A DNA stretch of 64,000 nt, taken from positions 17,742 to 81,741 of the IMG/VR virus record IMGVR_UViG_2600255250_000001; one strand, written 5' to 3'. The position numbers and the translations under genes were made by a program. Source of the stretch: a virus. Its lineage: Duplodnaviria > Caudoviricetes. Under the pieces are notes generated by a model. It saw only the letters and a list, made by a program, of their open reading frames with translations, was not told where the DNA came from and made no database searches. Position 1 is the first letter of the stretch; every line of letters begins with the position of its first letter. Positions 1,839 through 64,000 of the stretch are shown piece by piece.

Positions 1839-4039
1839 CCATTGCAAGAAACTACGAAGCCGGTATGGGCCAGGCGGTTGCTGACCGCACCATCAATAGG
1901 CCGGGTGAGCAGTGGTCCGATGTCTCTCACCGTGTTGCCCTTGGCAACTCTCTCCTTGACCAGAAGGTCAATGACTATCCGGCTCTCTCCCACCACCTTC
2001 TACAAGCTTCCACACTCATGTCAGGTCGCCACCTCCAACACGGCGACGTAGACCAGCCAGGGCGTCCGATGGAGGTCTTCTCCAACTGCTCGACGGCCAT
2101 GCTTCGCTTTCTAAACTTCAAGCTCCTGCTGTCGGGCTCCGGGGTCGGCAGCGCATACGATGACGCCCTGATGGTCGTCGACTGGACCAAGCAGCCGAAC
2201 GTCGTTCCTGTCATCGATCCGAGCCATCCCGACGTGGCCAGCGGGCGCGTGAAGGGCTTCCTCAGCCTTCGCGATGCCATGCACCTGTATGAGGGTCGCG
2301 AGATCGTCGTGTTCCATGTGCCTGACAGCCGTGAGGGCTGGGCCAAGGGCATCGAGCAGATCGAGAAGATGGCCTACCAGGGCCTGACCGATCACATCCT
2401 CATCCTCGACTTCACCGCTGTGCGGTGCTTCGGCTCGCCCATCAAAGGCATGCAGAACCGGCCAGCCTCAGGGCCTGGCCCGTTGATGGATGCCATTGTC
2501 AACGTGGCGCGGCTCAGGGGCGCTACCATGGCGCCGTGGAAGGCCGCGATGTACGCGGACCACTTCCAGGCCGAGTGCGTCCTGGTGGGCGGCGCTCGCC
2601 GTGCAGCTCGTATCGCCACCAAGTTCTGGCGTGACAAGACGATCTTCGACTTCATCGATTTGAAGCGACCGCTGGAATTCCGCGGCAAGACCCGTGAGGA
2701 AGTGGAAGAGCTGCGGGCCACTGGGTTCTATCAGTCGCACCTCTGGTCCTCGAACAATTCCGTGGCCGTCGACCAGGAATTCTGGGACGCGCTCAACTGC
2801 CACCCGTGGATGAAGCAGGCCGACCGCATCCAAGCTCGCAAGGTCTGGAATGCCATCATGGATGCCCAGCATGGTGATGGCACCGGCGAGCCAGCGCTGC
2901 TGAACGTCCACAAGCTCACCATGAACGACACGGACATCGAGCAGTACCGCGAGCAAGCGTTCGCCGGCTCGAAGCTCTACACGCCTGACGCCGTTACCCT
3001 GGAACTGATGAAGGAGCTGACCGAGCGGGTGCTCGCCCACAGCTACCACTACATCGTCAACCCGTGCGGCGAGATCGTCCTGTTCATGCTGGGGGCCTTC
3101 TGCGTGATCGCCGACGTGGTTCCGTTCCATGCCATTGATGACGACGACGCCGAGGACTGCTTCCGGGTCGTGACCCGTGCTCTGATGCGGGTCAACACCA
3201 TGGACTCGATCTACAATCTGGAGGTGGCCCGCACCAATCGAATTGGTGTCGGCCTGACCGGTCTGCATGAGTGGATGTGGACCCGGTTCGGGTTGGGCTT
3301 CCGCGAAGCCGTGGCCTTGCCAATGACAGCCAAGGCGGCTGAGTTCTGGAACATGCTGAAGCGCTTCGGCGATGCTGTCGATGATGAAGCCAAGAGCTAT
3401 GCGAAACTGTTGGGTGTTGTCGTCCCTCACACCAACAAGACCGCGAAGCCAGCCGGCACCACCAGCAAGTTGTTCGGTCTCACCGAGGGCGTCCATCTGC
3501 CACCGATGCGGAAGTATCTCCGCTGGGTCCAGTTCCGCAACGACGACCCTTTGGTGGCCGAGTACGCCGCCAAGGGCTATCCGATCCGGCAGCTGGAAAC
3601 GTACGCCGGCACGACGATCGTTGGCTTTCCGACAGCGCCGGTCATCACGACGCTCGGCATGGGCGACAAACTGGTCACCGCTTCGGAGGCAACGCCGGCC
3701 GAGCAGTTCCGCTGGCTCCGTCTGTTGGAGCGTTACTGGCTGGGCGAGACCCGTGGCAACCAGATCAGCTACACTCTGAAGTACGATCCGACCGTGGTGT
3801 CCTTCTCGCAATTCGAGAAGGTGATGCGGGAGAACGTTCCGACCGTCAGGGCCGTGTCGGTGCTGCCGCAAATCAACTCGCTGAGCTACGAGTACACGCC
3901 AGAGGAGGAGATCTCGGAGGAGAGGTTCGCGGAGATCGTCGCTGGCATCGTGGCGATGTCCGAAGACGTGGATCGGGTCCACGTTGACTGCGAAGGCGGT
4001 AGCTGTCCAATCGACTTCTCCAAGGCCGGGGTGGTGTGA
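1835..4039 (+). CDS. nrdJ: Class II (adenosylcobalamin-dependent) ribonucleotide reductase
   Basis: FSNC, NPCGEI, KPAGTTS motifs and C-terminal CEGGSCP; AGGAG RBS before ATG 1835; no beta subunit nearby. Confidence 0.85.
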   Translation: MTIARNYEAGMGQAVADRTINRPGEQWSDVSHRVALGNSLLDQKVNDYPALSHHLLQASTLMSGRHLQHGDVDQPGRPMEVFSNCSTAMLRFLNFKLLLSGSGVGSAYDDALMVVDWTKQPNVVPVIDPSHPDVASGRVKGFLSLRDAMHLYEGREIVVFHVPDSREGWAKGIEQIEKMAYQGLTDHILILDFTAVRCFGSPIKGMQNRPASGPGPLMDAIVNVARLRGATMAPWKAAMYADHFQAECVLVGGARRAARIATKFWRDKTIFDFIDLKRPLEFRGKTREEVEELRATGFYQSHLWSSNNSVAVDQEFWDALNCHPWMKQADRIQARKVWNAIMDAQHGDGTGEPALLNVHKLTMNDTDIEQYREQAFAGSKLYTPDAVTLELMKELTERVLAHSYHYIVNPCGEIVLFMLGAFCVIADVVPFHAIDDDDAEDCFRVVTRALMRVNTMDSIYNLEVARTNRIGVGLTGLHEWMWTRFGLGFREAVALPMTAKAAEFWNMLKRFGDAVDDEAKSYAKLLGVVVPHTNKTAKPAGTTSKLFGLTEGVHLPPMRKYLRWVQFRNDDPLVAEYAAKGYPIRQLETYAGTTIVGFPTAPVITTLGMGDKLVTASEATPAEQFRWLRLLERYWLGETRGNQISYTLKYDPTVVSFSQFEKVMRENVPTVRAVSVLPQINSLSYEYTPEEEISEERFAEIVAGIVAMSEDVDRVHVDCEGGSCPIDFSKAGVV

Positions 4040-4563
4040 TGACCGAACGCTGGCTACCAGTGGTTGGTTTCGAAGGACGATACGAGGTCTCCGACCTCGG
4101 TCGCGTTCGATCTCTGGCGTTCCGCTCTAACGGCGGTGTTGGTCTGATGAAGTCGACGCCAAACTATTCTGGCTACCATGTGGTCACTCTCGGTAGGGAC
4201 AGAAAGCAGAGGAGAGTTCACGTCATGGTGCTTGAAGCCTTTGTCGGGCCTCGCCCTACAGGTATGCAGGGATGTCATGATAAAAGCGACAAGGACAACA
4301 ACCGGCTCGACAGCTTGAGATGGGACACACCGAGGGGGAATATTGCAGACCGGAGGTCCTACTCTGAAGGATCACACCCGAACTCTAAGCTATCACAAAG
4401 TGATTTTGATGATATCAGATTCAATTTGGCAATGGGTCGTGATCTGAACACCATCGCGGAGCGGTTTGGAGTTACGCGAAATAGAATTTCTCAAATTAGG
4501 AAAACAGTCTCTCCCGTAGAGGCACCCTACAGAGGTTTCGTGGGAGAGGTTGGACTGAGATGA
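4039..4563 (+). CDS. NUMOD4-HNH homing endonuclease
   Basis: WLPVVGFEGRYEVSDLGRVRS, VHVMVLEAFVGPRP, NNRLDSLRWDT. Confidence 0.85.
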   Translation: MTERWLPVVGFEGRYEVSDLGRVRSLAFRSNGGVGLMKSTPNYSGYHVVTLGRDRKQRRVHVMVLEAFVGPRPTGMQGCHDKSDKDNNRLDSLRWDTPRGNIADRRSYSEGSHPNSKLSQSDFDDIRFNLAMGRDLNTIAERFGVTRNRISQIRKTVSPVEAPYRGFVGEVGLR

Positions 4564-4593
4564 CCTAGGAAAAGGAAACGATTCCAGGACGTT

Positions 4594-4624
4594 AAGAGGG
4601 GCGCTACTGCGCCCCTTTCTTTTT
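4594..4624. terminator. Terminator at convergence of early and late transcription
   Basis: AGGGGCGC-TACT-GCGCCCCT hairpin with T run. Confidence 0.55.
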
Positions 4625-4903
4625 GTCCTTCAATTTCAGCAGTCTTGGGTCATGTGAGGCGTCGATTATGGCGATCAGACGCTTTCCGCAGGCGGATTTG
4701 ACTTTGTCGCTGCGAAGGAACTCCGCGAGCTTGTCAAAGAGCATCAGCTGGTTGATCGGGCCAGCTGGAAAAGGTCCGACCACCTCGTCGAAGCACTTGC
4801 GGATATCTGGCGGAACGTTCGGCAGCTCAATTTTGCCAGAGTCGTCGCACCCGGTCAGCGTCAGGGCCGTCAAAACAAACAGTATCTTTGTGAACGAGCG
4901 CAT
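4604..4903 (-). CDS. o-spanin (Rz1-like lipoprotein)
   Basis: Signal peptide with lipobox LTGC, Pro-rich, overlaps 3' end of i-spanin. Confidence 0.7.
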   Translation of the reverse strand: MRSFTKILFVLTALTLTGCDDSGKIELPNVPPDIRKCFDEVVGPFPAGPINQLMLFDKLAEFLRSDKVKSACGKRLIAIIDASHDPRLLKLKDKKKGAQ

Positions 4904-5138
4904 CACGGTCTTCCTTGGTCTTCTTGTCAAAAATGACGATCACTTCGGCATCCGCCACAGCTTGGCTGGAGTCGGCTTCAAGGATCGCGATGTTTGTTTG
5001 CAGGCCAATCACTTGCTGTTTGAGAGCGGCGACCTGAGCCGCCTTCTCGAACTTGACCCAGCCATAGCCGACGCCGGCGAGGAAGAGGCCCACGCAGACA
5101 GCAACCTTGAGGAGAATGAGAGACAGCCAGGCGGGCAT
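4827..5138 (-). CDS. i-spanin (Rz-like)
   Basis: N-terminal TM then coiled coil, C-terminal Cys, downstream of endolysin. Confidence 0.7.
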   Translation of the reverse strand: MPAWLSLILLKVAVCVGLFLAGVGYGWVKFEKAAQVAALKQQVIGLQTNIAILEADSSQAVADAEVIVIFDKKTKEDRDALVHKDTVCFDGPDADRVRRLWQN

Positions 5139-5236
5139 CAGAGGACGCACCATGTTAGGAGGGCAAGGAGGAGCACCAGGGTCACGACGATTTCGGTGCC
5201 ATACTCTTCAAGGAGAGCTTGAGCGATCTCTTTCAT
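5138..5236 (-). CDS. Small single-TM protein in lysis cassette (32 aa)
   Basis: MKEIAQALLEEYGTEIVVTLVLLLALLTWCVL; TGATG overlaps on both sides; below ORF-track cutoff. Confidence 0.6.
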   Translation of the reverse strand: MKEIAQALLEEYGTEIVVTLVLLLALLTWCVL

Positions 5237-17381: not shown

Positions 17382-20300
17382 GCCGCGACCGCCTGTTGGA
17401 TCAACGTCTTGAGAGCACCCTTGCGCTGAATATTGTCAGCAACCACGGCCACAATATCGGTTGGGCTAGGTGGGGGCACTTGATCAGGGCTAACTATCCA
17501 CACATTGAGCGTGGTAGGTCCTTTGGCATTGTCATTCGAAGGGGCCGTCATACTCTCTGATCTTGTGGCATTTCCTAGGTTGTTGAGGGTGTTCAGCTTA
17601 TCCTCCCCAATGGCGGATACTGCTGACTGCCGAAGCACGAACTCCCCTGGGGCCAACTTTCGAAGTACGCTGTCCCGCTGTTGGTTACCGGGGATTAATT
17701 CTCCGAGAGCGCTACCCTTCACGCCACCACCGAGAGACATACCCACGACGCCGAGTAGCCCCCCAAGGATATCACCACCAGCGCCGCCCCCGACACCTTT
17801 TATTAGACTCATCACGACCTGGAGAGCAAGCGCCTTAGCTATTGCCTGCATCAAACTCTGCACAACACTTAGACCGAACGCCTTGAAGGCTTCCGTCGCC
17901 GACATCGTGCCGCTGGTGAGATCCATGAACAAGGTTTGGAAAGAACTGGTGAGGTTGTTGAGGATCGGTCCCCAGGCATTCCCAACCTGAGTTGCAAGAG
18001 GGACCATCTCCAACATGCCACGAGCGTTACGCTGCATGACACCGTTCTGAACCATCCAGGCGTCAGTGCTACTTTTGATAGCGGCGGAGACACTTGGGCT
18101 CTGTTGAGCAGTCGCCGCGTCAATCGCCAGCTTCTGCTTGCCCAGGTCCACAGCGCGCTGCTTGGCCGCTATTTCTTGCATTAGCCAATACGTTGCCTCA
18201 GGGGAGCCTTTGCCGTAGGTGGCCTCAGCGACGGCCTGCTCCTTCTTGATTTGAAGCAGTAGCTGCTCAGCCGCATTGACCTGGTCGAGGAGCGCCTTGC
18301 GCTCTGCAAGCTTGACGTTGGTCTCAAGGCCAACGATCTGATTTTGGGTAAATTTGCTGGCATTCTCAGGCAGCTGAGCAGCGTCAAGGGCTCTCTGTGC
18401 TGCTAGGACCGGCTCCTGGGTCTTCTTGTCCAGCTGGTTCCAATACTCCTCCAGGAGGGCGGCGACCTTCTGGTTGCGGTCTGCACGGAGCCCTTCGAGC
18501 ATCTCGGTGCGTTGAGCGATCAGCTCCTCGTCGCCATCCTTCAGGCCGGCTGCGTTCTCCTGATCGAATGCCTTGATTTTGGCGTCGATGATCTTCTGAT
18601 ACTGATCATTGACCGAGCCCAGAATCTTCTTGACCGTCTCGGGATCGCTGGCGAGCTTCGACTGTGCCACCAGGGTCTGGATTTGCTCAGTGGCGCTCTT
18701 GACCGAAGTGCTCGTCGAGGCCTTGATCGCCTTGGTCGTCGCATCCAGCTCAGCCTTGGTGCGATCGGTGATCGCCCCCTGGATGTTCTGGTTGTCAGCG
18801 GTGTAGTCGCCCTTGCCAAGGGTGATGGCCTGGCCGATACGGTCGTTGATGTGGTTGATGGCTGGGTCGGCGTTCGGCTTTTCGTAGCCGGTCATCACGA
18901 TGCGAGCAGCTTCCTCAGGCGTCCTTGCCGACATCAGGGCAGCGTAGACCTGAGGGAATTTGGTCCGCAGCTCTTCGTCGACGAACTGGTTCTGGGTCGT
19001 GCTGTCGAATGGGCTCTTGCCCTTGTCGGCAGCGAACTGCTGTGCGGCATCCCAGCGGTCGAAACGCCACTGTGGCTTTCCGAAAGCAGTCGGGCGACCA
19101 GTCTTGTCGCTAACGTCACCCTTCGCGTTCGGGTCCAGACCACTCTCGGTGATGAAGTTGCCGACGAGGCCGGCCGCCGCCGCTTGCGAGTAACCCATGG
19201 CGATGAACTGCTTCATGTCGGCAGCAGCGCGATCGGCAACGCTCTTCGCGAGCGGCGAGCCTTCGCTCAACGTCTGGGACTGAATGTCGAGAGAACCGGA
19301 CTGGACCTGGAGCTTGGCCAGCTCGGCGGCCATCGTGTTGAACTGAGTGATCAGAGCGTCCATGGCAGGCCCTGGGCGGGACTTGCGGATAGCCTCGATT
19401 ACCTGCTTGATCTTCTTCTCCAGGACGCCGGCGTCGGCATCCACGGCATCCTTCATCGCCTTCAGCTGATTGACCGCAAGCTCCTGCGCCTGATCGCTGA
19501 TAGAGGTGATGAAGTCCTGCTCGGCCTGGTTGATCTGCTTCTGGTCTTCGCGAAGACCAAGTTCCAGTTCGGCTCTGTTGTCATCGTCGCCGGCGGCTGC
19601 GATCTTGGCATCGAAGATTTCGGCCGTCAGCCTCCGCTTCCGATCGAACTTCGCCTTCACCGCCTCTTCGATGATACTCAGCTCCTCCTTGGAGTAGCTC
19701 TTGCCGGTCAGCTTGAGGAGAGATTGAATCTCCTTGTCGATGGTCGACTGCTGCTCCTTGAGAACGTCCTCTTGGATCTTCTGATAGAGCTTGTTTTCGG
19801 AGGTGGCGCGAGCCGAGATGCGGTTGGTGATCGAAGCCGTGGCGTCGGTAAGATACTGCTTCACCATCGACTCGACCTTGGCCCGGTCGAAGTCGGGGTT
19901 CGACTTCATGATGTCGTTAACGAAGGTCGCGCCCTGGCGCTGGATATCGGCGATGCGGCCGGCATAGACATCCCTCAGGTTGTTCAGCCCATCCAGGATT
20001 TCTTTGGAACTCTTTCCACGGGTTTCCTTGAACGCTCTGCTGGTGTCCCGATTGAGATCGGCCGACAACGAAACGACGCGCTGCCCAAGATCAGTGAACT
20101 CCGAAGTGTTCTTGACCGCGTTGAGCATGTTCTCCTGGTTAAGCCGGTCGAGCTTAGCCTTGGAGGCGTCGATCCGGGTGGACATCGTGAGAAGCGGCGT
20201 GAGGCCAGCGTTCAACGCGTCGAGCAAATCGACGGTTTTGGTGAGCTGCTCGATCTTCGCTTCCAGCTCTGGCGTCGAGTTGCCCAGCTCTTTCTGAGCC

Positions 20301-45584: not shown

Positions 45585-45762
45585 GAAAGTCCTTATTGGC
45601 GGAACGCCTCTCGAAAGTATGGGATGGCAGGTTGATCTCGACAAGGTTCGCCTCGTCTGGAGAGAGGGCACCGAGCCGGCCAAGCAGCTGGTCTTCCTCA
45701 CCAATCTTATCACCTCGGCTCGCGCTGAACGCGACCGCATTATTCAGGAGACATTTGGATGA
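45583..45762 (+). CDS. Hypothetical protein (59 aa) coupled to rtcB
   Basis: MKVLIGGTPLESMGW...QETFG; ATGA overlap. Confidence 0.4.
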   Translation: MKVLIGGTPLESMGWQVDLDKVRLVWREGTEPAKQLVFLTNLITSARAERDRIIQETFG

Positions 45763-47078
45763 CCTACACCGGCAAAGACCTGATCCGCTGGGGCCACAAG
45801 CCAGGCCCGTTCTTCGGTCCCGCCATCGATGAGGCCAACCGTCTCTCGAAGAAGGGCTACAGCGAAGCCTTGATCGAGGAGATGATCCGCCGCCTGGTGC
45901 CCACACCCATCCCCGAGATCCAGCTCTACTCGACGAGCCGCCCCTTCGGTGTGTTCCTCGACGCCACCACCGAGGACGAGATCACCAACAAGGCAGCAGT
46001 CCATAAGGCCATGGACGAGTTGATGCGCCTGCCCACCGTGGTGAGCGGCGTGATCATGCCCGATGCCTGCCCAGCTGGCGTCATCCCGGTCGGTGGCGTC
46101 GTCGCCACCAAGGGCGCGATTCATCCTGGCTTCCACTCAGCCGACGTCTGCTGCTCGATGGCGATCACCGTCTTCAAGCGCAACGATGACCCGAAGCGGC
46201 TGCTCGATGCAGCATTCGGCATCACCCACTTCGGCCCGTCACCCAAACAGAGCCGATACAGCAAGGTGCCTCACACCATCCTGAACCGTTTCCGAGGCAA
46301 TCCTTTCCTCGCCCAGAGCGAGAACATTGCCGGCGCTCACTTCGCCACCCAGGGCGACGGCAACCACTTCCTATTCGTTGGACACCTGGAGTCCACGGGA
46401 CAGCTGGCGATGGTGACCCATCACGGCTCCCGTGGGCTCGGGGCGCAGCTCTACAAGCGAGGCATGCAGGCGGCGAGGCGGCACACCGCCATCGTTGCTC
46501 GACGCGCTCCACCGGCAGCTGCGTGGCTTGACGCCACGTCCGACCAGGGCTTCGCCTACTGGGAAGCTCTCCAGATCGTCCGCGACTGGACCGAAGCCAG
46601 CCACTTCGAGATCCACAATCGGATCGCAAGGCACATGGGCAACGCCATCATCGACCAGTTCTGGAACGAGCACAACTTCGTCTTTCGCAGAGACGATGGG
46701 CTCTACTACCACGCCAAGGGAGCGACCCCATCGTTCGCCGGGTATGAGCGGACGCTGATCCCGATGAACATGGCCGAGCCGATCCTGATCACGGCACCGA
46801 CCAACAACGAGACCGCTCTTGGCTTCGCCCCACACGGCGCCGGTAGGAATATGAGCAGGACGCAGTTCATGAAGAGCTACGATCCCATACCGCCGGCCAA
46901 CATCGACATCCGGTACTTCACCGGCAAGCCCGACCCCTCGGAATTGCCCGACGCCTACAAGTCGGCAGCCGGCGTGATCGCCCAGATCAAGAAGTACGAC
47001 CTGGCCAAGATCACCGACCGTGTCCTGCCTTACGGCAACATCATGGCGGGAGACACCGCCTGGAGACGACCAACATGA
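45759..47078 (+). CDS. rtcB: RtcB-family RNA 2',3'-cyclic phosphate/3'-P ligase
   Basis: MPDAC..IPVGGV, SADVCC, GDGNHF, HHGSRGLG, HN, HAKGAT, PHGAGR..SR, ELPDAYK. Confidence 0.92.
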   Translation: MTYTGKDLIRWGHKPGPFFGPAIDEANRLSKKGYSEALIEEMIRRLVPTPIPEIQLYSTSRPFGVFLDATTEDEITNKAAVHKAMDELMRLPTVVSGVIMPDACPAGVIPVGGVVATKGAIHPGFHSADVCCSMAITVFKRNDDPKRLLDAAFGITHFGPSPKQSRYSKVPHTILNRFRGNPFLAQSENIAGAHFATQGDGNHFLFVGHLESTGQLAMVTHHGSRGLGAQLYKRGMQAARRHTAIVARRAPPAAAWLDATSDQGFAYWEALQIVRDWTEASHFEIHNRIARHMGNAIIDQFWNEHNFVFRRDDGLYYHAKGATPSFAGYERTLIPMNMAEPILITAPTNNETALGFAPHGAGRNMSRTQFMKSYDPIPPANIDIRYFTGKPDPSELPDAYKSAAGVIAQIKKYDLAKITDRVLPYGNIMAGDTAWRRPT

Positions 47079-47197
47079 CCTACCTCCTGACCCTCGTCAT
47101 CTGGGGCCACGTCTTCGTCCTCGACAGCGGCCTGACGGACTGTGAAATCTACGAGGTCGAGGCACCGCTCTACTGCGTCAAGGATGTGCAGGCATGA
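47075..47197 (+). CDS. Small hypothetical protein (40 aa)
   Basis: ATGA overlaps on both sides. Confidence 0.45.
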   Translation: MTYLLTLVIWGHVFVLDSGLTDCEIYEVEAPLYCVKDVQA

Positions 47198-47481
47198 ACC
47201 TCCGCGCCATCCGCAATCGCGACGATGATTTCGTCATCTGCCACGACCAGCCCTGCAAGAAGGGCGAGACCAACATCGTCGCCCACGTCTGGGTCACGCC
47301 CAGCTCGAATATGAGCGACAGGTTCGAGGCCCAGTTCAACGCCCCTCAATTCAGCTTCGAGGAGCTGGAGCTGATCAGCAACGCCTTGGCAACCGTCGCC
47401 CCGCGTGGATGGGAAACCGCCGAGACCGCGGTGAAAACTAAGGTTCGCGTTGCTTACGCTAGACTTGCGAGTATCAAATAA
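47194..47481 (+). CDS. Hypothetical protein
   Basis: Coupled ORF. Confidence 0.5.
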   Translation: MNLRAIRNRDDDFVICHDQPCKKGETNIVAHVWVTPSSNMSDRFEAQFNAPQFSFEELELISNALATVAPRGWETAETAVKTKVRVAYARLASIK

Positions 47482-47493
47482 ATACTTGCTTCT

Positions 47494-47570
47494 GCCCCAC
47501 TCGTCTACAGGTTAGGACACCAGCCCTCTCAGGCTGGAAAAGCTTGGATCGATACCAGCGTGGGGTACCA
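47494..47570 (+). tRNA. tRNA-Glu(CTC)-like, 8-nt anticodon loop
   Basis: Acceptor GCCCCAC/GTGGGGT, Glu-type D arm, CCAGC-CCTCTCAG-GCTGG, encoded CCA. Confidence 0.75.
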
Positions 47571-47682
47571 AAATTCACGATAGTAGCTGGGGAAGGTTGT
47601 TCTTTCTGCCCTCCAGCGCCCGCTGACTTAACTGCACCCTAGTGGTGGCTCGTGCTCGAACACGAGGCGTCAGTGGTTCTTT

Positions 47683-47759
47683 GCCTCATTCGTCTACCGG
47701 TTAGGACACCAGCCCCCTCAGGCTGGAAAAGTTTGGTTCGATCCCAGCATGAGGTACCA
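47683..47759 (+). tRNA. tRNA-Glu-like paralog, 8-nt anticodon loop
   Basis: Acceptor GCCTCAT/ATGAGGT, CCAGC-CCCCTCAG-GCTGG, GGTTCGATCCC, encoded CCA. Confidence 0.75.
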
Positions 47760-47762
47760 AAT

Positions 47763-48145
47763 TCAAAACTTAGCACCTTTACGAAGATTGTCAGGCGCCC
47801 AGAGCGACGACCCCTAACAGCGTGACCAATTCGGTTTCGCATGCTCTGGGAGAGTTTGAAGGAAGGGTCTAATGCCCTTCTAGCCTTTTTAGCTACAGTG
47901 CTCTTGAGGTTGATAGCCTTTTTGTTCTGCCGATAATATTCTCGCTGACACTCTAACTTCTTAAGGGCATTTGCCACCTTGTGGCGTTCATAGGATGCTC
48001 TCCTGGAAGCCTTAGACATATCAGGGTCCCTGGCCTTGTATTCAGCCATCCTCTGAAGCCTCACCTCGCGGTTCCGCTCATAGCTTTCTTTAGCTTGTCG
48101 CCTGATCCTCTCACGGTTCTTGGCTCGATATTCCGTGGCTAACAT
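47763..48145 (-). pseudogene. HNH endonuclease with catalytic core deleted
   Basis: Basic N-term and DPSFKL like 54289-54837, joined out of frame to LWAPDNLRKGAK. Confidence 0.7.
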
Positions 48146-48207
48146 CAATCATCCTCTTCGCCCTTTAAATAGGGTTTGGAAGCAAAGGCTTAAAGGAGAA
48201 CGGGCAT

Positions 48208-49021: not shown

Positions 49022-50383
49022 ATGACCCGTTACACGATCCGTGACAACAAGACGAACGAAATCCGCAACAACCAGACCTTCGAGAATTACTGCAGCGCCT
49101 TCGACGAGCTTCAACGCATCGGCGCCAATTGGCAGCGTACCCTGTACCTCCATGACAACCGTTGGCGCGACGATTGGAACCGTGCCCAGACGCTCGATCT
49201 GACCGAGTTCGGCTTCGAGCCGATCAAGGATCACTTCCTGATGCTCGCCAGCGATGACTCCGCCGATGCGGTGTACGTCACCTATTTCCAGGATGAATGG
49301 GCCGGCGCCAAAAGAAAGCGCACCTCGCCCATGAAGCTGGGCCGCTACCTGAAGCAGTTCTATCCGCAGCTCACCGACGACGAGGTCACCACCCAGTCGA
49401 CGACCATCTTCACGAAGCTGCTGAAGATGGACCTCCAGCTGGCCTATAGCGCCGACGACATCCAGGCTATCTACGAGGAAAGCCACGCCGGCGCCTGTGG
49501 CTCCTGCATGAGTCACAGAATGGACTCCGGTCATTGGAATTCGTGGCAGAAGGACCACCCGGTTCGCGCCTATGCTGGCCCCGACCTGGCCCTGGCCTAC
49601 ATCCGCAAGCCCGTCACCGGCGAGCTGCTCGGCCGTGCCCTCGTGTGGCCCGAGAAGAAGAAGTTCGGATCGACCTACGGCAACTACGACAAGATACGAG
49701 CTGCCCTTCGACAGGCCGGCTACACGTCTGACGGCAACTTCGACGGCGCTCGTATGACCCGGCTCGTGCAGCGCCGGAACGGCAACACGGTCTATCTGGC
49801 CTGTCCGTACCTCGACAACGGAAACGGCTGCCATGACAATGGCGAGTACCTGGTCATGGGTCGGAACTCAGCGTACGACCGCAAGGATAGCTCGCAGAAT
49901 GGTTACATCACCATCCAGGAGTATCGCTGCGCCATTAGCGGTGAATTGATCCCGGCTGCCAAAGCGTTCGAAGTTATGAGCCCCGACGGCCTGAGCACTG
50001 TCTCCATCCTTCGCGACCTCAGGGACACGCACACCGAATATCACCACGGCTCCCGTTGGTTGAAGTCCGACAATGACGACGACTACATCGTCGTCGGCGA
50101 CGGCAAGCGCCTGCCACGTGGTGTGGTCTCGAACTACTATCGTAAGTGTGCTGTGACCAAAAAGTTCTACCTCCCGTCAGAAGGCATGAACACCAACGAC
50201 GGATGGGTCTGCAACCAGGTTTATTTCAGAGACTATGTCGTTTGCCAGGTGTCGAAGTCCGTTCTCAAGAAGGACCGAGCGGTCTGGATGGAGCACGGCG
50301 CCTGGTGGCACCCTGAGATGCTCCGAACCCATGGTGTCCAGGTCGAGGGCAAGAACTACGCTCGCCTTCTCCAGGCCGCATAA
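49022..50383 (+). CDS. Uncharacterised 'SCM-motif' protein, copy 1
   Basis: GSCMSH, AYAGPDLALAY, GRALVWP, YG, CPYLD, Cys-rich C-term. Confidence 0.75.
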   Translation: MTRYTIRDNKTNEIRNNQTFENYCSAFDELQRIGANWQRTLYLHDNRWRDDWNRAQTLDLTEFGFEPIKDHFLMLASDDSADAVYVTYFQDEWAGAKRKRTSPMKLGRYLKQFYPQLTDDEVTTQSTTIFTKLLKMDLQLAYSADDIQAIYEESHAGACGSCMSHRMDSGHWNSWQKDHPVRAYAGPDLALAYIRKPVTGELLGRALVWPEKKKFGSTYGNYDKIRAALRQAGYTSDGNFDGARMTRLVQRRNGNTVYLACPYLDNGNGCHDNGEYLVMGRNSAYDRKDSSQNGYITIQEYRCAISGELIPAAKAFEVMSPDGLSTVSILRDLRDTHTEYHHGSRWLKSDNDDDYIVVGDGKRLPRGVVSNYYRKCAVTKKFYLPSEGMNTNDGWVCNQVYFRDYVVCQVSKSVLKKDRAVWMEHGAWWHPEMLRTHGVQVEGKNYARLLQAA

Positions 50384-51306
50384 TGGAAAAGTACCTGGAA
50401 ATGTTGAGCTTTTGTAGACCAGCCGGCAGCGTTTACGAGGAAGCCTTCGTCGAGAAGTATCTCCGCGAGCCTCACCGGCCCATCGAGGACGGCTACGGCA
50501 ACCAGATCATCGATGTGGGGTCCAAACCCAATATCGTCTGGTCCTCGCACACCGATACCGTCCATCGTGACAGCAGGCTTCAGCACATCGAAGTCGGCAA
50601 GAAGGATGGATTTGCCCGTGTCGCTCCCAGGCAGAAGCTCTCCAACTGCCTGGGAGCCGACTGCACGACTGGCGTGTGGTTGATGTTGGAGATGGTCGAA
50701 GCCGGCATCCCCGGCCGCTACATCTTCCACCGTGCTGAGGAGCGGGGCATGCTCGGCAGCACCTGGCTCGCCAAAAATGCTCCTGAGTGGTTGAAAGGCA
50801 TCGACGCTGCCATTGCATTCGACCGCATGGGCACCAACGAGGTGATCACCCACCAGGGCAGCTGTACGGCGTCCAATGAGTTCGCCACGTCTCTCGCCAC
50901 CATTCTCGGCGGCGCCTACAAGCCCAGCTCGAATGGTGTCTACACCGACACCAAGGCCTACGCCAGGATCGTGCCCGAATGCACGAACATCGGCGTCGGC
51001 TACTATCGCCAGCACAGCCCCTCAGAGAGCCAGGACCTGAACCACCTCAAGTGGCTGCGAGACGTGATGGTCAAGTTCGACCAGAGCACCCTCGTGTTCA
51101 AACGCGATCCCGCCGCCGTGGCCGAATATGATCCCTACGACTTCTACGAATGGGATCAGGCTCAGTACGATTGGAGCGCCTACGTCAACCTCGTCCGCAG
51201 GAACCCCAGCACGATCGCTGCGATCATGCAGGACCTGGGCTACGACTACGACAAGCTCGACATCGACATCTACAAGCGAAATCGTAACAAGACCTCAGCC
51301 CTATAG
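50383..51306 (+). CDS. M28-like Zn metallopeptidase, copy 1
   Basis: SHTDTVH, LGADC, AEERG, AFDR, YTDT, QH..SE. Confidence 0.82.
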   Translation: MEKYLEMLSFCRPAGSVYEEAFVEKYLREPHRPIEDGYGNQIIDVGSKPNIVWSSHTDTVHRDSRLQHIEVGKKDGFARVAPRQKLSNCLGADCTTGVWLMLEMVEAGIPGRYIFHRAEERGMLGSTWLAKNAPEWLKGIDAAIAFDRMGTNEVITHQGSCTASNEFATSLATILGGAYKPSSNGVYTDTKAYARIVPECTNIGVGYYRQHSPSESQDLNHLKWLRDVMVKFDQSTLVFKRDPAAVAEYDPYDFYEWDQAQYDWSAYVNLVRRNPSTIAAIMQDLGYDYDKLDIDIYKRNRNKTSAL

Positions 51307-51357: not shown

Positions 51358-51796
51358 ATGTTGTCACCAGATGAACGTCGAGCACGAGATCGAGGTTATT
51401 ACGCCAAGATGTCCTTGGTGCGAAAACTGAGAAAAGTAGCGCTTCAGGATAATCGGCGTTTATCCATCACTAGAGCAATCCAGGGACTACAAGTCGACAA
51501 TGAAGTGTGCATGTGGAGAAGACCACCCAGGCTGTCTGGATTTTCATCACGTAACAGATGACAAAGAGGTAAACGTCGGTGACGCTGTCCGTCTGGGTTG
51601 GTCGATCAAGCGGTTGATGACCGAAATTAATAAGTGCGTAGTGATGTGTTCAAACTGTCATCGAAAACATCACTACGTTAGATATCTGGGTGTAGCTCAG
51701 CCTGGCCAGAGTGCTCGGTCTGGACCCGAGAAGTTCGTAGGTTCAAATCCTACCACCCAGACCACGGAACGTAGCTCAAGTAGAGCCCTGCATTGA
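51358..51796 (+). pseudogene. HNH endonuclease, frameshifted near 51480, 3' end runs into tRNA-Pro
   Basis: CACGEDHPGCLDFHH...EINKCVVMCSNCHRKHH; one extra C separates the N-terminus. Confidence 0.65.
51686..51764 (+). tRNA. tRNA-Pro(TGG), phage-encoded, atypical C33/A37
   Basis: CTGGGTG/CACCCAG, CTCGG-TCTGGAC-CCGAG, GTAGG-TTCAAAT-CCTAC, ACCA. Confidence 0.8.
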
Positions 51797-51837
51797 TAAA
51801 AGCGGTTATGGAGGTTCTACTCCTCCCGTTCCGTCCA
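51765..51837 (+). tRNA. tRNA-like gene (GAT anticodon?), degenerate loops
   Basis: CGGAACG/CGTTCCG, GCTC/GAGC, GGAGG/CCTCC all pair, encoded CCA; short D loop and enlarged anticodon loop. Confidence 0.6.
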
Positions 51838-53084: not shown

Positions 53085-54302
53085 ATGGCTTCGTTCGAAA
53101 TCGTTGAAGTGACCGGCGCCGGCAATGTGTCTTTGCCGCATCTTGGCGTCTTCCCTGACGGCAAGATGGCTGCTGGTGTCGTAGCGTCCATGCTCCTTCA
53201 CAATCCCGAGAAGAAGTATCAGCCTCGTCCGATCATGGTGTCGGCTGACTGGCGTAAGCGGGAGACAGAAAAGAACCACCCGCACTTACCATGGGGGGAT
53301 GCCCTCAAGCCGATCCCTGACCACTTTGCCTGTGTGTCGGACAAGGACCCGGCAATGGTCTCATACTTCGCGAGTGAGAACTCGGGCAAGCTCGACCGGC
53401 GGACCAACGTCCACGTCAACCGCTATCTGCTGGAGTTCTATAGCTTCTTGCCGGTGGACACGCGGCGTCGACTGGTTTGGAACTTTACCGGAGAGAACCC
53501 GGCAAATCTGCTGTTCGCCTCAACCGCCGAGGACATCGTCGACATTTACGAGCGCGGTCCCAGCTCCTGCATGTCCCACGAGTCTTCCTACTACGCTCCG
53601 GATGAAAATCCAACGGCCGCCTACGCAGGTCCTGACCTACAGCTGGCGTATGTCAATGATGAGTATGGCGATCCTGTTGCCCGCACCGTGGTCTGGCCTG
53701 CAAAAAAGATCTTTTCCACGATCTATGGTGACGAGGAGAAACTTCTGCCTGAACTGAAGAAGCTCGGCTATCGGAAATCGTTCTTCGAGTTCGAAGGCGC
53801 TCGTCTGACACTTCGGAGAGCCGGGGGATATTTTGCCTATGACGGCGAGGATGTCTCTGGCTATCTTTGCCCCTACATCGACTTCGCGAGCAGTGTCGAA
53901 CCCATCGATGGCTACCTGGTCGTCACCCGCAAGGGAAGATATGAATGCCAAAGCCAGTCTGGCGTCGCTGAGAGGGCCGCAAAACGTTGCTGGAAGTGCA
54001 AGAGCATGCGCAACCAACATGCCTTCTTTGATGTGGACGAATATCCCACCGAGTCCGTCTGTCAGGACTGTGCTCACGACAAGCTGGTCATCTGCGCCTA
54101 CGAGCAGCGTTACCTCTCACTCGGTTGCGATGCCCATGCCATCAGTGGTGGCCGATACGTCGGCAACTATGCCTATCGACATCACACCTTCGTCTGCCTT
54201 GGCAATGGTCAGCGCTACCTTCAAGACGAGGCGGTCTACCATCAAGGCGACAAGTACTCGGAAGAGGGTCTCGCTCAGTTTCTGAGGTCTAAAGCGGCTT
54301 AG
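53085..54302 (+). CDS. Uncharacterised 'SCM-motif' protein, copy 2
   Basis: SSCMSH, AYAGPDLQLAY, ARTVVWP, IYG, CPYID, CxxC repeats. Confidence 0.75.
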   Translation: MASFEIVEVTGAGNVSLPHLGVFPDGKMAAGVVASMLLHNPEKKYQPRPIMVSADWRKRETEKNHPHLPWGDALKPIPDHFACVSDKDPAMVSYFASENSGKLDRRTNVHVNRYLLEFYSFLPVDTRRRLVWNFTGENPANLLFASTAEDIVDIYERGPSSCMSHESSYYAPDENPTAAYAGPDLQLAYVNDEYGDPVARTVVWPAKKIFSTIYGDEEKLLPELKKLGYRKSFFEFEGARLTLRRAGGYFAYDGEDVSGYLCPYIDFASSVEPIDGYLVVTRKGRYECQSQSGVAERAAKRCWKCKSMRNQHAFFDVDEYPTESVCQDCAHDKLVICAYEQRYLSLGCDAHAISGGRYVGNYAYRHHTFVCLGNGQRYLQDEAVYHQGDKYSEEGLAQFLRSKAA

Positions 54303-54874: not shown

Positions 54875-55771
54875 ATGCAAGAATTTCTTAACATGATCCG
54901 CTACAAGCGCCCGGCGTTCTCCGCGACGGAAGAGATCTTCGTGAACAAGTTCATCCGTCCACTCGGCACCAAGACCGATAAGTTTGGCAACCTGATGAAG
55001 TCGATCGGTGATCACCCGAACACCCTTTGGTCCTGTCACACTGACACGGTTCACTGGACTGAGGGTCTACAGAAGGTCATTCACAACGACGACACCGTGG
55101 CGCTACCCGAGTCCTCGCACTCAAATTGCCTGGGTGCCGACTGCACCGCTGGTGTCTGGTTGATGACGGAGATGATCAAGGCCAAGGTCCCCGGCCTCTA
55201 CGTGTTCCATCGCGACGAAGAGAACGGCGGCGGTGGTTCCATGCACATCGCCAGCAAGACTCCTGATCTGCTCAAGGACATCGACGCGGCCATCGCCTTT
55301 GACCGCTTCGGCACCAAGTCGGTCATCACCCACCAGTTCGGCCGCTGCTGCTCAGACGACTTTGCAGATAGTCTTTGCGAGCAGCTGCCGGGCTCGGAGA
55401 AGGACGACAGTGGCCTGTTCACTGATACGGCCAACTACGTCGATCACGTCTCGGAATGCACAAACATCTCGGTCGGCTACGCCGGCCATCATAGCCACAA
55501 GGAAGTCCAGAACCTGAAGTTCTTGAACGATCTCAAGAACCGCATGATCAAGCTGGACACCAGCAAACTGCGGTTCTCTCGCGACTTGAAGGACACCGGC
55601 TACCCCCGGTACAAACCGCAGTTTGCAGCCAGTCGTTTCGATGACTGGGTGTCCAAAACCAGAACTCTGGAAGACCTTATACGTGCCAACCCCGGCGCAG
55701 TTGCAGACCTGTTCGAAATGTACGGCCTGACGGCCGGCGATCTGGAGGAGCACATCCATGGCTCACATTAA
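54875..55771 (+). CDS. M28-like Zn metallopeptidase, copy 2
   Basis: CHTDTVH, LGADC, DEENG, AFDR, FTDT, HH..KE. Confidence 0.82.
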   Translation: MQEFLNMIRYKRPAFSATEEIFVNKFIRPLGTKTDKFGNLMKSIGDHPNTLWSCHTDTVHWTEGLQKVIHNDDTVALPESSHSNCLGADCTAGVWLMTEMIKAKVPGLYVFHRDEENGGGGSMHIASKTPDLLKDIDAAIAFDRFGTKSVITHQFGRCCSDDFADSLCEQLPGSEKDDSGLFTDTANYVDHVSECTNISVGYAGHHSHKEVQNLKFLNDLKNRMIKLDTSKLRFSRDLKDTGYPRYKPQFAASRFDDWVSKTRTLEDLIRANPGAVADLFEMYGLTAGDLEEHIHGSH

Positions 55772-56054: not shown

Positions 56055-56491
56055 CCAAGTGGCCTGATCGACTTACGCTGCGAGACACCAAAATCCACGC
56101 CGATGAAGGTCAGCGCATCTACACGACCGCCACTGGGTACGGCTACGAAAAATGTGAATACATCCGCGCCGATCTCAACGCACCGGAAGTCAATACCGAT
56201 CGATCTCTCGTAGACGAACTGACAGGAGCGCTCCGCTTCATCATGGCCTTCTACGAACCCGGCCAGCGCTACCTCGACACCGAAGCATGGAAGCATGCAG
56301 AGGCCGGTGGCCGGCGAGCGCTGGCTCGTGGTGAAGCTGCTCTCAAGGAAGGGGTTACCAGCGTCCCCCAGCTCGGCGGTGCGCCTGACGATCTGCACAA
56401 CTTGATCAAGGTCACGTTCGCGGACATGTCCATCGAGCGGATGAATGAGGTTTGTCAGCAAGTCCTATCGATGCGGAAGGTGACAGCATGA
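56051..56491 (+). CDS. Hypothetical protein
   Basis: ATGA coupling on both sides. Confidence 0.55.
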   Translation: MTKWPDRLTLRDTKIHADEGQRIYTTATGYGYEKCEYIRADLNAPEVNTDRSLVDELTGALRFIMAFYEPGQRYLDTEAWKHAEAGGRRALARGEAALKEGVTSVPQLGGAPDDLHNLIKVTFADMSIERMNEVCQQVLSMRKVTA

Positions 56492-57012
56492 GCATCGTCA
56501 GCCAAGCCTCATACTTCACCGCTGGCGCCCACGCAGCGGTGGGCCAGAAGAGAAAGTACTGCGGGGAGGACTACATCCACCATCCCGCCCGTGTTGTCGC
56601 CCTGGTGCGCTCTGTGACCCACAATCAAACGAATATGTGTGCCGCAGCCTGGCTGCATGACACCGTCGAGGATACCAAGGTCACGCTTGAGCAGATCGCC
56701 TTCCACTTCGGCGAAGAGGTGGCGGCTCTGGTTGAGCAGCTTACTGACCCATCCGTGCCCTCAGACGGTAACCGTGCCGCTCGCCGAGCAATCGACCGTG
56801 AACACACGGCCAGGGCCTCGCCCGATGCCAAGACCATCAAGCTCGCTGATCTGATCGACAACGCTTCGTCGATCACACAAGCCGACGCCTCCTTCGCCAA
56901 GGTCTACATGACCGAGAAGAAGGCGCTGCTCGAAGTCCTGACCGAAGGACACCAGTCCTCCTCGCGAAGGCCAAGCAGCTGGTCGATCAATATTTCGATC
57001 ACCAATAGATAA
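56488..57012 (+). CDS. HD-domain small alarmone ((p)ppGpp) hydrolase, SpoT/Mesh1-like
   Basis: AH..GQKRK..GEDYIHHP, AAWLHDTVEDT, LTD, IKLADLIDN; possible late frameshift near 56953. Confidence 0.85.
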   Translation: MSIVSQASYFTAGAHAAVGQKRKYCGEDYIHHPARVVALVRSVTHNQTNMCAAAWLHDTVEDTKVTLEQIAFHFGEEVAALVEQLTDPSVPSDGNRAARRAIDREHTARASPDAKTIKLADLIDNASSITQADASFAKVYMTEKKALLEVLTEGHQSSSRRPSSWSINISITNR

Positions 57013-57845: not shown

Positions 57846-59917
57846 ATGCTTATCGCGCAACAAGACTTTGTCGCCCAAACGGGTGGCATTTCCGAGACCA
57901 AAGCCTTTGGTTTTGAAATGAATGGCTTCGCATTCCATACGGTGATCTCTGGCATCTATGCAGATAAACTGCGGGCTCCGTTCCGAGAGCTGGCAACCAA
58001 CGCCAGAGACGGCCATGCTGCCAAGGGCAACCTCTACCAGCCCTTCGATGTCTTCTTACCGTCGAAGTTGGACCCGACATTCAAAGTGCGTGACTACGGT
58101 ATATCGCTCAGCCACGAAGAGATCATGGGCATCTACACGACCATGTTCGCTTCGACTAAGCGTGGCTCGAACGAAGCCACGGGGATGATCGGTCTGGGGT
58201 CCAAGTCGCCCTTTGCTTATACATCGGTCTTCACCGTTATCGCCTACCTCGGTGACTACAAGCGGACCTACTCGGCCTTCATCGGCACAGATGGTGTCCC
58301 ACAGATCGCCTTGCTCGACATGTGTCAAACCACTGAGCCTGATGGCGTTGAGGTATCGTTCCCTGTCAAGGTCGAGGACGTGGACAAGTTCCGCAACATC
58401 GCTCCCGACGTGCTCTTCGGCTTCGATCCTTTCCCCAACATCTTGAATGAGCAATTCGTTCGTCCAGCCCCGGTGACCCTCTACCAGGGGATGGCTGGAC
58501 TCTCTACGATGCTAAGACTGTACCGTTTGGAGCCAAACTCATGGCTCGGCAAGGTGGGGTCTGCTATCCGATCTCGCCGACCTCGCTCAGCATCACAAGC
58601 ACACTCTTCAACTGGCCCGTCGTCATCGACTTCCCGATTGGTGACCTGTCAGTTGCCACCTCTCGCGAAGCTCTCGGCTACGACAGTCGCACTATAGCGG
58701 CCATCACCAAGCGGATCGACGAGACTGTGCTGGGCATGACCGAGCTGCTGAAGGATGAGGTCAGCGCTGCCGCCAGCTACCTCGAAGCCTGCAATATCCT
58801 GGCTGAAGGCAAGCATCACAATAGCCCTAAGAAGCCTCTGTTCGACCTTGTCGGCGCTCACCTGACCTGGGGCGGGAAGCCGCTCGTGGAGAAGATCCGG
58901 TGCCGCTCATCCTGGATCGGTGCTCACGGTGCCGAGCTGCGGCCCAGCAAAATCGCGATGGGTCAGCTGCGCAAGTCTGTCGCTCACAGGCCCCAGTCGG
59001 TCAGCGAGATCTTCGCCAGCCCCAAGGAGATGATGGAGACCTTGGTCTACGTCGAGTTCGAGGGCCTCAGGTTCGGCCCCTCCCGGATGCGACAGGCCAT
59101 TCTCGACAACACCGACAAGAAGGACATCCTGTGGATCAGGGCGACCAACCTGACCACGTTGGCGCCGCTCATCGAGGGGCTTGGCGGGCCTGAGTGGACC
59201 GACCTGGGTGTGGTTCCGCCGCTCAAGTGGGAGAAGGGTCCAAAGACCGCAGCCAGGAAGCTTCAATATCTGTCGCCGGCGGGGTCGGTTTATCGCCAAT
59301 ATGAGCTGATCGCGACGTATGACACAGTCGTGCCTACTGACGAGATGTTCTACGTCAAGCAGGACTCAGCCGATTTTGATCTGAACGGCAAGACGGTCAG
59401 CAAGAAGGACCTTCACAACGCGATCAACAATCTGATGAAGGCCGGCGTCATCCCGCGTGGCGAGAAGGTCTATCTCCTTAATAAGGCGGCTCAGAAAGTT
59501 CTCGACACCGTGGACATGATCGACCTGAGCGTCTTCGCCAAGGAGAAGCTGGCCGATATGGTCGACGCCACAAGCCTGCGCCTGCCTGACGCTAGCTGGC
59601 AGGCTAGGGAGCGGGTCGACAAGTGCCAGAAGGTGCTGAGCGCCGAGGTGCCAGTTCCAGCCGAGATCCTCTCTGTCTGCAACCTGGTTGTCGACGACGC
59701 GGCAGGCCCGAAGGCCACGTTGGCGTCGGATAGTCCTCTGATGGAGGTCTACCGGAGGTACTACCCCGCCGAGTACGCAGCCGCATCTTCGAGGGCCGAC
59801 CCCGTCGTCCAGGCCTACCACGAAATGCTGGAGACCTATCCGCTGCTCAATCACACGATCTCATACCCAACCAAATTCAACCACTACATGGCTTTGCTGG
59901 TCAACCAGTGCCCTTAG
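57846..59917 (+). pseudogene. rIIA: rIIA-like protein (GHKL ATPase N-term), split by 1-nt frameshift near 58487
   Basis: IY..LRAPFRELATNARD, VRDYG, STKRGSN, GLGSKSPFAY; adding one G joins the two ORFs; may be a sequencing error. Confidence 0.8.

Positions 59918-62776: not shown

Positions 62777-64000
<1,224 letters not shown>

Follow-up and report, generated by a model that had tools for sequence, protein, structure and literature searches.

What use does a prophage have for two tRNA-Glu-like genes whose anticodon arms are not those of an ordinary tRNA? The question is raised by a stretch of 64,000 nucleotides (nt) from a Caudoviricetes genome (IMG/VR record IMGVR_UViG_2600255250_000001, positions 17,742 to 81,741), called the window below, in which these two genes lie downstream of a gene for an RNA ligase:

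45759..47078, plus strand: RtcB-family RNA ligase, 439 amino acids (aa), full-length (Pfam PF01139, 1.4e-30; phrog_1075 'tRNA splicing ligase', 5.1e-91)
47494..47570, plus strand: tRNA-Glu(CUC)-like gene 1, 77 nt (family model R1, 83.5 bits; minimum-free-energy (MFE) cloverleaf, -30.3 kcal/mol)
47683..47759, plus strand: tRNA-Glu(CUC)-like gene 2, 77 nt (family model R1, 81.3 bits; MFE fold)

A sequence-only reading of the locus had joined the three into an anti-defence module, in which tRNAs with an "8-nt loop" would resist or decoy a nuclease, or decode quadruplets, beside a ligase that reseals cleaved RNA. Judged by their sequences, both genes belong, as paralogues of each other, to a family of tRNA-Glu(CUC)-like RNAs that is specific to phages. 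The role we favor for them, with a probability of about one half, is that of aminoacyl carriers that would be disabled for decoding and would serve a tRNA-dependent transferase, following the logic of the Mom and Fem enzymes.

The two genes are built alike and are 88% identical. In gene 1, the acceptor stem GCCCCAC/GTGGGGT is followed by TC, a D arm GTCT..GGAC, an anticodon arm CCAGC-CCTCTCAG-GCTGG, then AAAA, a T arm GCTTGG-ATCGATA-CCAGC, A, and CCA. Gene 2 has the acceptor stem GCCTCAT/ATGAGGT, CCCCTCAG between CCAGC and GCTGG, and the T arm GTTTGG-TTCGATC-CCAGC. Each encodes its CCA and has a Glu-type D arm (TCGTCTA..AGGAC), and the acceptor stems are separated by two double, compensatory changes. 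The T stem is not a regular one of 5 base pairs (bp), as its 5' strand holds one extra nucleotide in both genes (GCTTGG and GTTTGG against CCAGC). The sequence-only reading had picked out the D arm, the encoded CCA, the acceptor-stem changes, and the extra T-stem nucleotide, together with an extra nucleotide in the anticodon arm, and each of them was confirmed. The MFE folds of both genes are cloverleaves with a 7-bp acceptor stem, a 6-bp anticodon stem with a hexaloop, and a bulged T stem. In gene 1, the anticodon stem is CCAGCC/GGCUGG, the hexaloop CUCUCA, and the T loop AUCGAUA; gene 2 has the same type of arm with the hexaloop CCCUCA, in which a C and no U stands before CUC, and the T loop UUCGAUC. 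This means that neither gene has the combination of 5-bp stem, 7-nt loop, and U33 that marks a canonical elongator tRNA-Glu.

Programs that search for tRNAs do not treat the two genes as ordinary tRNAs. ARAGORN, which had been suggested as a check, flags both genes as undetermined, "tRNA-???" with the anticodon "(ct)", and a two-nucleotide anticodon implies a 6-nt loop. The Rfam tRNA model RF00005 (gathering threshold 29 bits) matches the three other tRNAs of the window at 66.2, 55.6, and 41.4 bits and leaves genes 1 and 2 unmatched at the gathering score, at E<=1 over 5.5 kb, and at E<=10 over 321 nt. The host's tRNA-Glu(UUC) and tRNA-Glu(CUC) have ordinary 7-nt loops (CTTTCAC and CTCTCAC), and G1.U72 is common to the host tRNA-Glu genes and the prophage copies. 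In Escherichia coli, the identity set of glutamyl-tRNA synthetase (GluRS) consists of U11-A24, U13.G22, a short variable loop, and the anticodon x-U35-C36-purine37; the nucleotides of this set are present in genes 1 and 2, in a loop of different geometry.

The first relative is a gene of Bradyrhizobium phage BDU-MI-1 annotated as tRNA-Glu-TTC, with the loop CTTCTCGG and an extra T-stem nucleotide, and from this sequence and the window genes patterns were built for scanning. A strict pattern matched no locus in viral contigs, and a loosened one matched six, five of them tRNA-like. Metagenome contigs gave 12 matching loci, 10 of them tRNA-like (six new distinct sequences), and species-representative genomes, a collection that may leave out the window's own genome, gave 22, none tRNA-like and most of them one coding gene of Acidimicrobiaceae metagenome-assembled genomes. 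A further viral scan, which put no constraint on the final stem pair or on either end of the loop, gave 18 loci: five known, six new clear members, one variant, and six false. Every tRNA-like match of the scans that allowed TTC or CTC has CTC. False pattern matches (L018, L049, L054, L062, L063, L065, L066, L067, and L068) were dropped before counting. L069, a variant with a 6-bp stem and a 7-nt loop, was set apart, and L046, with a long insert in its variable region, was kept out of the alignment.

The alignment holds 18 distinct sequences: the window's two, that of BDU-MI-1, and 15 from viral and metagenome contigs. Over the 22 pairs of the cloverleaf, 97.7% of cells are standard pairs, and covariation scores 0.753, as compared with 0.160 for shuffles, none of 500 shuffles reaching 0.753 and slid controls giving 0.09-0.14. 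Covariation is seen in all helices other than the D stem, which is invariant and was fixed by the search patterns behind most of the aligned sequences. The earlier claims that the fold is under selection and that its anomalies are shared rather than random hold up well on these figures. The "8-nt loop" survives in part: eight nucleotides do lie between CCAGC and GCTGG, but the outer two pair in 18 of 18 aligned sequences (CG 14, UA 2, GC 1, UG 1), leaving six unpaired. The same pair is found in all 13 members that were detected without constraining those positions (C-G 9, U-A 2, G-C 1, U-G 1). Since the pair covaries, the arm is best described as a 6-bp stem with a 6-nt loop, YYCUCR.

The T-stem bulge is limited to a subgroup (genes 1 and 2, L015, and, shifted, BDU-MI-1), and most relatives have a plain 5-bp T stem. 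A homolog search had also been suggested, and in it the relatives keep the odd loops with different stems in independent records, so the loops are not a sequencing artefact. In a control set from related genomes, which takes in one locus from an unpublished genome (G086), all 34 cellular tRNA-Glu genes have U33 and a 7-nt loop, and 29 of the 34 lack a 32-38 pair. Among the 150 matches of R1 listed for the genomes of the bacterial family, only the window's two genes are 77 nt long.

Some individual relatives depart from the common plan. L129 (8447-8578) has a D-loop insert of about 54 nt that itself holds a tRNA-Glu-like fragment, and L046 (1002-1105) has an insert of about 28 nt in its variable region; these inserts could be introns, duplications, or decay. 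In provirus G002 (L021, 5544-6844), a radical-SAM gene (Pfam 6.9e-19) lies between the odd tRNA-Glu-like gene and a tRNA-Glu(CUC) gene of normal length. Another normal-length copy lies upstream, and the loop of the normal-length copies is UUCUCAG, with a possible U32.G38 pair.

What lies beside these RNAs in other phages gives a clue to their use. An all-against-all comparison of the open reading frames (ORFs) around the tRNA loci brought out two unrelated partner families. The first, type A, is a protein of about 480 aa with the Pfam domains DAM-like-phage1 and GNAT-phage-like (PF22555 + PF22559; phrog_7858), the latter scoring 1e-23 to 4e-11 in type A relatives. It is usually followed by a ParB_N-like protein, and a sequence search found no solved relative of it. 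From the tRNA side, counted over 18 distinct loci found independently of proteins, type A is nearby in five (L017/L019, L046, L058, L059, and L060). In the reciprocal test, loci were fetched by the protein and then searched with the RNA covariance model R1, which matched in 34 of 38 viral type A loci. The 37 matches (31 distinct sequences) all lie on the strand of the type A gene. In 25 of the 38 loci, the RNA 3' end falls -14 to +188 nt from the estimated type A start; the gap is 243-360 nt in three others and larger in six. R1 had no match in L149, L152, L162, and L166, and the gene of L162 is cut by the contig end. The RNA family is thus genetically coupled to a GNAT-type transferase gene, which it abuts in those 25 loci.

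The RNAs of the type A loci vary in an informative way. A sixth anticodon-stem pair is present in 31 of the 37, with loops of 4-6 nt. The other six have loops of 7 nt or longer, five of them (L138, L139, L163, L141, and L147) without U33. Position 33 is G, C, or A in some relatives. Most are Glu-like (CUC) and two have CUA, while L148, L155, L156, L158, and the RNA of Gordonia phage Clawz are Gly-like (UCC/CCC, with a different D arm) and that of Faecalibacterium phage FP_Brigit is Lys-like (CUU). D arm, anticodon, and acceptor/discriminator switch as a set, giving Glu-, Gly-, or Lys-like RNAs. Type A also occurs in cultured phages: FP_Brigit, the Gordonia phages Clawz, Soos, Sting, and Jollymon, and Microbacterium phage ValentiniPuff. 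It stands beside a ParB-like gene and terminase in the three fetched records (FP_Brigit, Clawz, and ValentiniPuff). Directly upstream of it, FP_Brigit has an unannotated Lys-like (CUU) gene (L175, 2235-2311) and Clawz an unannotated Gly-like (UCC) gene (L176, 2323-2396), whose acceptor is GCG/CGC and which has U73 and could pair C32 with G38. In L059, the tRNA-like gene and type A have as their neighbor (2874-5225, minus strand) an N6 DNA methylase that includes a type I specificity domain, which fits a DNA-modification neighborhood.

The second family, type B, is the one present in the window, where it occurs twice, the second time behind two further tRNAs:

49022..50383, plus strand: P0001, 453 aa, candidate partner of the tRNA-like RNAs (neighbor clustering; structure comparison)
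50383..51306, plus strand: M28/M20-like metallohydrolase (Pfam Peptidase_M28, 9e-07; phrog_4191, 8.3e-77)
51686..51764, plus strand: Pro(UGG)-like phage tRNA with C33 and A37, loop UCUGGAC (ARAGORN, Rfam, sequence)
51765..51837, plus strand: Ile(GAU)-like tRNA, 8-nt loop UUGAUAAA (ARAGORN "tRNA-??? (gata)"; Rfam tRNA, 41.4 bits with a loop insertion)
53085..54302, plus strand: P0002, a P0001 paralogue (BLASTP 3e-30, 34% identity over 250 aa; phrog_6980, 1.2e-4)
54875..55771, plus strand: second M28-like hydrolase, paralogue of that at 50383-51306 (phrog_4191, 1e-72; Pfam Peptidase_M28, 0.019)

Type B is thus a member of the P0001 family followed by an M28-like hydrolase of phrog_4191; in 49 of 57 viral loci, the hydrolase gene comes straight after the P0001 relative. 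From the tRNA side, type B is found in seven of the 18 loci: 22-103 nt downstream of the RNA in L048, L050, and L070, at 0.5 kb in G003 and 1.26 kb in the window, and 8-10 kb away in G002 and BDU-MI-1. P0001 itself has no Pfam domain or PHROG family. A profile search of the PDB returned LIM-type zinc-finger noise only, and the ESM Atlas returned unnamed viral clusters only; BLASTP between P0001 and type A gave nothing. The C-terminal half of P0001 is Cys-rich. Its AlphaFold (AF2) models have a predicted local distance difference test (pLDDT) score of 90.1 when the entire protein is modelled and of 90.6 when residues 55-300 are. In Foldseek, the best solved matches are to MprF (7f47 at E 0.022, then 0.027), and FemX, Eis, and further GNATs come next; in a VIA-align comparison of 50 rows, most are GNATs. 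MprF and FemX are aminoacyl-tRNA-dependent transferases, so these matches, weak as their scores are, were counted for the donor reading.

How would such a system work? That the RNAs are charged and kept from translation, how the transfer proceeds, and which molecule accepts the amino acid are all matters of proposal here. The Mom protein of phage Mu, which belongs to the GNATs, takes glycine from Gly-tRNA-Gly and attaches it to N6 of adenine in double-stranded DNA, and FemX, MprF, L/F-transferase, and PacB are other GNAT-fold users of aminoacyl-tRNA; Mom takes all host tRNA-Gly isoacceptors, and the available part of the source makes no mention of a phage tRNA (PMC13219725). The RNAs of the window would be transcribed, processed, and charged with glutamate by host GluRS. 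They would be poor substrates for the ribosome, and the bulged T stem would perhaps also disfavor EF-Tu. Their task could then be to carry amino acids solely for a GNAT-type tRNA-dependent transferase of the phage. The candidate enzyme in the window would be the P0001/M28-like hydrolase module 1.26 kb downstream, and the second P0001/M28 module is preceded by the non-canonical Pro-like and Ile-like tRNAs. In other phages, the partner would be the Dam-like and GNAT-like fusion, which makes DNA adenine a candidate acceptor, as in Mu Mom. An RNA welded to type A, whose synthetase identity changes with the enzyme and whose loop is closed, short, or without U33, is best explained by a private aminoacyl donor that stays out of translation. 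The different, weakly GNAT-like partner of the window's RNAs suggests an analogous role.

Several observations weigh against this donor reading. The window and its whole genome have neither PF22559 nor PF22555, so the local case rests on P0001, and there 1.26 kb and an ORF on the opposite strand lie between the RNAs and P0001. Seen from the protein side, a tRNA-Glu-like gene lies within 10 kb in four of the 57 P0001-relative viral loci (L081, L095, L114, and L129), and 47 of the 57 have no tRNA at all. A relaxed ARAGORN search upstream of P0001-type genes showed no excess (seven matches in 57 regions, against eight in 48 control regions). In six of the 18 tRNA loci, three of them contigs shorter than 3 kb, neither partner was seen. 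The structural signal is low as well: Foldseek gave P0001 no match at E<=0.001, and VIA-align placed residues ~136-238 on the GNAT fold with a low Z (best MprF 9j8q_A, Z 5.2, root-mean-square deviation 3.2, 98 aligned). These scores lie where perhaps only a common arrangement is shared, and the assignment of the P0001 models to the GNATs is weak. A comparison of 30 P0001 members with Pfam found nothing recurrent and no GNAT signal, and hhalign of P0001 against the type A family gave a probability of 0.2. In 150 of the 151 bacterial-family genomes, ordinary cellular tRNA-Glu also scores 69-78 bits with model R1, nearly as much as the odd genes, and for that reason the arm was read from alignments and not from scores. 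Loci from related phages share synteny and are not independent. Of course, GluRS may also refuse a hexaloop.

Could the neighboring ligase explain the RNAs instead? The gene was rightly recognized as RtcB in the sequence-only reading, and it ends 416 nt upstream of the tRNA-like genes on the same strand; a search of the window's own genome found no second RtcB. On this account, loop-altered tRNA-Glu copies would resist or soak up a host anticodon nuclease while RtcB reseals cut tRNAs. It draws on the pairing recurring within about 10 kb in BDU-MI-1 (2.3 kb) and provirus G002 (2.8 kb) and again in L081, on the non-canonical anticodon loops of all four phage tRNA-like genes of the window, and on phage tRNAs with anticodon-loop substitutions that escape tRNases, as described in two sources (PMC10264068, PMC11555353). 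The count across loci speaks against it: RtcB is near three of the 18 independently found tRNA loci, the window's included, three of the 57 type B loci, and none of the 38 type A loci, though 34 of these carry a tRNA-like gene. No RtcB turned up in G001, in G003, or in two fragments (G004 and G005), and in the Rhizobium phages with the closest RtcB (RHEph10, RHph_Y2_11, and B1VFA) a tRNA-Glu-like gene is absent, the model reaching 23 bits at best. A resistant replacement must also decode, which by general tRNA knowledge a 6-nt loop that is closed, and in some cases lacks U33, would do poorly; no nuclease that cuts tRNA-Glu was identified. RtcB looks like a lineage-specific neighbor and at most a repair accessory, not the organizing partner once claimed. 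Read from the gene neighborhoods, an RtcB-centered account fails to explain the RNA family but may apply in the lineage of the window; overall, we consider it unlikely. Proximity to RtcB alone is insufficient to infer a counter-defence against anticodon nucleases. In another sense, "anti-defence" may still be apt by analogy, as tRNA-dependent modification of phage DNA.

Other explanations leave out a partner enzyme altogether. Working tRNAs, whether ordinary GAG readers or +1 frameshift (quadruplet) decoders, would account for the cloverleaf, the encoded CCA, a D arm of the Glu type, and the purine that comes after CUC. The loop has 8 nt if the closing pair opens; yeast mitochondrial tRNA-Thr1 is reported to decode triplets with an 8-nt loop (PMC3113583), and SufB2-type tRNAs with expanded loops are reported to promote +1 frameshifting. 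Translation nevertheless appears quite improbable as their role, and the earlier idea of quadruplet decoding is weakened in particular, since all 13 unconstrained members share in the covariation of the closing pair and the loops of relatives are 4-6 nt long, several without U33 (G33, C33, or A33). Gene 2 with its C before CUC, the bulged or aberrant T arms, the missing Rfam match, and a host already supplied with tRNA-Glu(CUC) point the same way, and tight linkage to one enzyme gene is unexpected for a codon-supply tRNA. The nearness to that gene could instead mean a cis-acting tRNA-like element, that is, an RNase P/Z processing signal or a structural leader that determines where the mRNA downstream of it has its 5' end, how stable it is, or how it is translated, aminoacyl transfer playing no part. 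In 25 of the 38 type A loci, the RNA 3' end is about 0-190 nt from the start codon, often 0-20 nt, which leaves little room for a separate ribosome-binding site. Such an element would not explain why identity features of the aminoacyl-tRNA synthetase type switch as a set, why the gene is duplicated in tandem in the window, or why 1.26 kb separates it from P0001 there, and we give it little credence. Least probable by far are decaying, functionless tRNA-Glu pseudogenes. Rfam misses both genes, ARAGORN cannot name them, and some relatives have large inserts or no CCA (L046, L129, and L017), but the compensatory changes in the helices (the D stem being invariant) and an anomaly kept across distant phages and environments are not what decay leaves behind.

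A wider reading, which we put forward tentatively and at somewhat less than even odds, is that phages encode a hitherto unrecognized class of "non-decoding" tRNAs with synthetase identity (Glu, Gly, Lys, and others) and an anticodon loop that is closed or shortened, each wired to its own GNAT-type transferase gene as a private donor shielded from translation. Type A would then carry out a Mom-like aminoacylation of DNA adenine with different amino acids, and P0001/M28 would be a second, unrelated tRNA-dependent pathway. The literature, mostly open-access and searched in main texts, yielded no phage tRNA-Glu-like genes with such loops and no phage tRNA coupled to a GNAT enzyme. If the reading is true, many phage tRNA genes that are called undetermined or are missed would be co-substrates of modification enzymes and not codon supply, and tRNA-dependent DNA modification would grow from a single known case (Mom, glycine) to a multi-amino-acid family with its own tRNAs. 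A closed-anticodon-loop tRNA-like gene abutting a GNAT gene would serve as the genomic marker, and the chemistry would be directly testable in the cultured phages FP_Brigit, Clawz, and BDU-MI-1.

The setting of the two genes is that of a prophage. On the minus strand, the window encodes the terminase large subunit, portal, major head protein, and a tail J-like protein, and on the plus strand ribonucleotide reductase, primase, rIIA/rIIB, and integrase; the tRNA-like genes and RtcB sit in this plus-strand early/accessory arm. The integrase ORF enters a host tRNA-Pro(UGG) gene (63907-63983), which is likely the attachment site. NCBI names the P0001 relatives as hypothetical proteins of Mesorhizobium, and the hosts of the closest phage relatives of the RtcB gene are Rhizobium, Bradyrhizobium, and Mesorhizobium. 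One more feature lies between RtcB and gene 1:

47075..47481, plus strand: two small ORFs, 40 and 95 aa long (ORF list)

Neither has a match in Pfam or PHROG, and for the 95-aa ORF a tblastn search of all fetched loci returned only the window's own matches. A 169-aa ORF on the minus strand (47639-48148), rich in Arg/Lys/Tyr repeats and with no Pfam match, spans the gap on the P0001 side into gene 2; it may be an inserted mobile gene that parted the tRNA-like genes from P0001. Farther downstream, ahead of the second P0001/M28 module, the Pro-like and Ile-like tRNAs follow one another with nothing between them. The loop of the host tRNA-Pro is UUUGGGA, against UCUGGAC in the phage Pro-like tRNA, and the stem of the Ile-like tRNA holds an A.A mismatch. 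Just before the Pro-like tRNA, an ORF at 51360-51680 has a Cys/His spacing that, by eye, is reminiscent of an HNH endonuclease. At 56452-57012 is an HD-domain phosphohydrolase (phrog_990), whose BDU-MI-1 homologue (L003, 2194-2760) bears the annotation "GTP pyrophosphokinase" and immediately precedes the RtcB gene of that phage. The rIIA gene at 57846-59917 appears as two overlapping ORFs of 283 aa (N-terminal match) and 458 aa (C-terminal match), which may reflect a frameshift or a split gene.

How do these RNAs compare with known systems? A phage RNA ligase beside loop-altered phage tRNAs recalls the T4 PrrC/Pnkp-Rnl1 repair and tRNase-evading tRNAs, but the evading tRNAs are reported to keep 7-nt loops and decode (PMC10264068), and the ligase link here holds in three of 18 and none of 38 loci. 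One extra nucleotide in the anticodon-loop region is shared with SufB2/sufD-type suppressors and yeast mitochondrial tRNA-Thr1; these have 8 nt unpaired, whereas here the outer two form a covarying Watson-Crick or wobble pair. A tRNA-like RNA encoded beside RtcB is also known from the bacterial Y RNA (YrlA) with Rsr/Ro and RtcB, yet YrlA has a long Ro-binding stem and the RNAs here a complete anticodon arm. The TROVE/Ro domain PF05731 had no match in the window's genome, which is 99.98% complete, and control genomes did match. In staphylococci, non-proteinogenic tRNA-Gly isoacceptors serve the FemXAB transferases. They offer the combination that is proposed here, of synthetase identity, changes that disfavor translation, and a GNAT-fold transferase as partner, but they are cellular, have a normal loop, and are mainly weakened for EF-Tu, whereas the present RNAs are phage-encoded, mostly Glu-type, and have a rebuilt arm of 6 bp with 4-6 nt. 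Mu Mom differs in that here a dedicated tRNA gene abuts the enzyme gene and in that the window, with no type A, has the unrelated, weakly GNAT-like P0001. The likeness to Mom lies in a phage GNAT partner, in type A suggesting a DNA adenine target, in the Gly-like character of some partner tRNAs, and in the charged tRNA that is proposed here as the donor.

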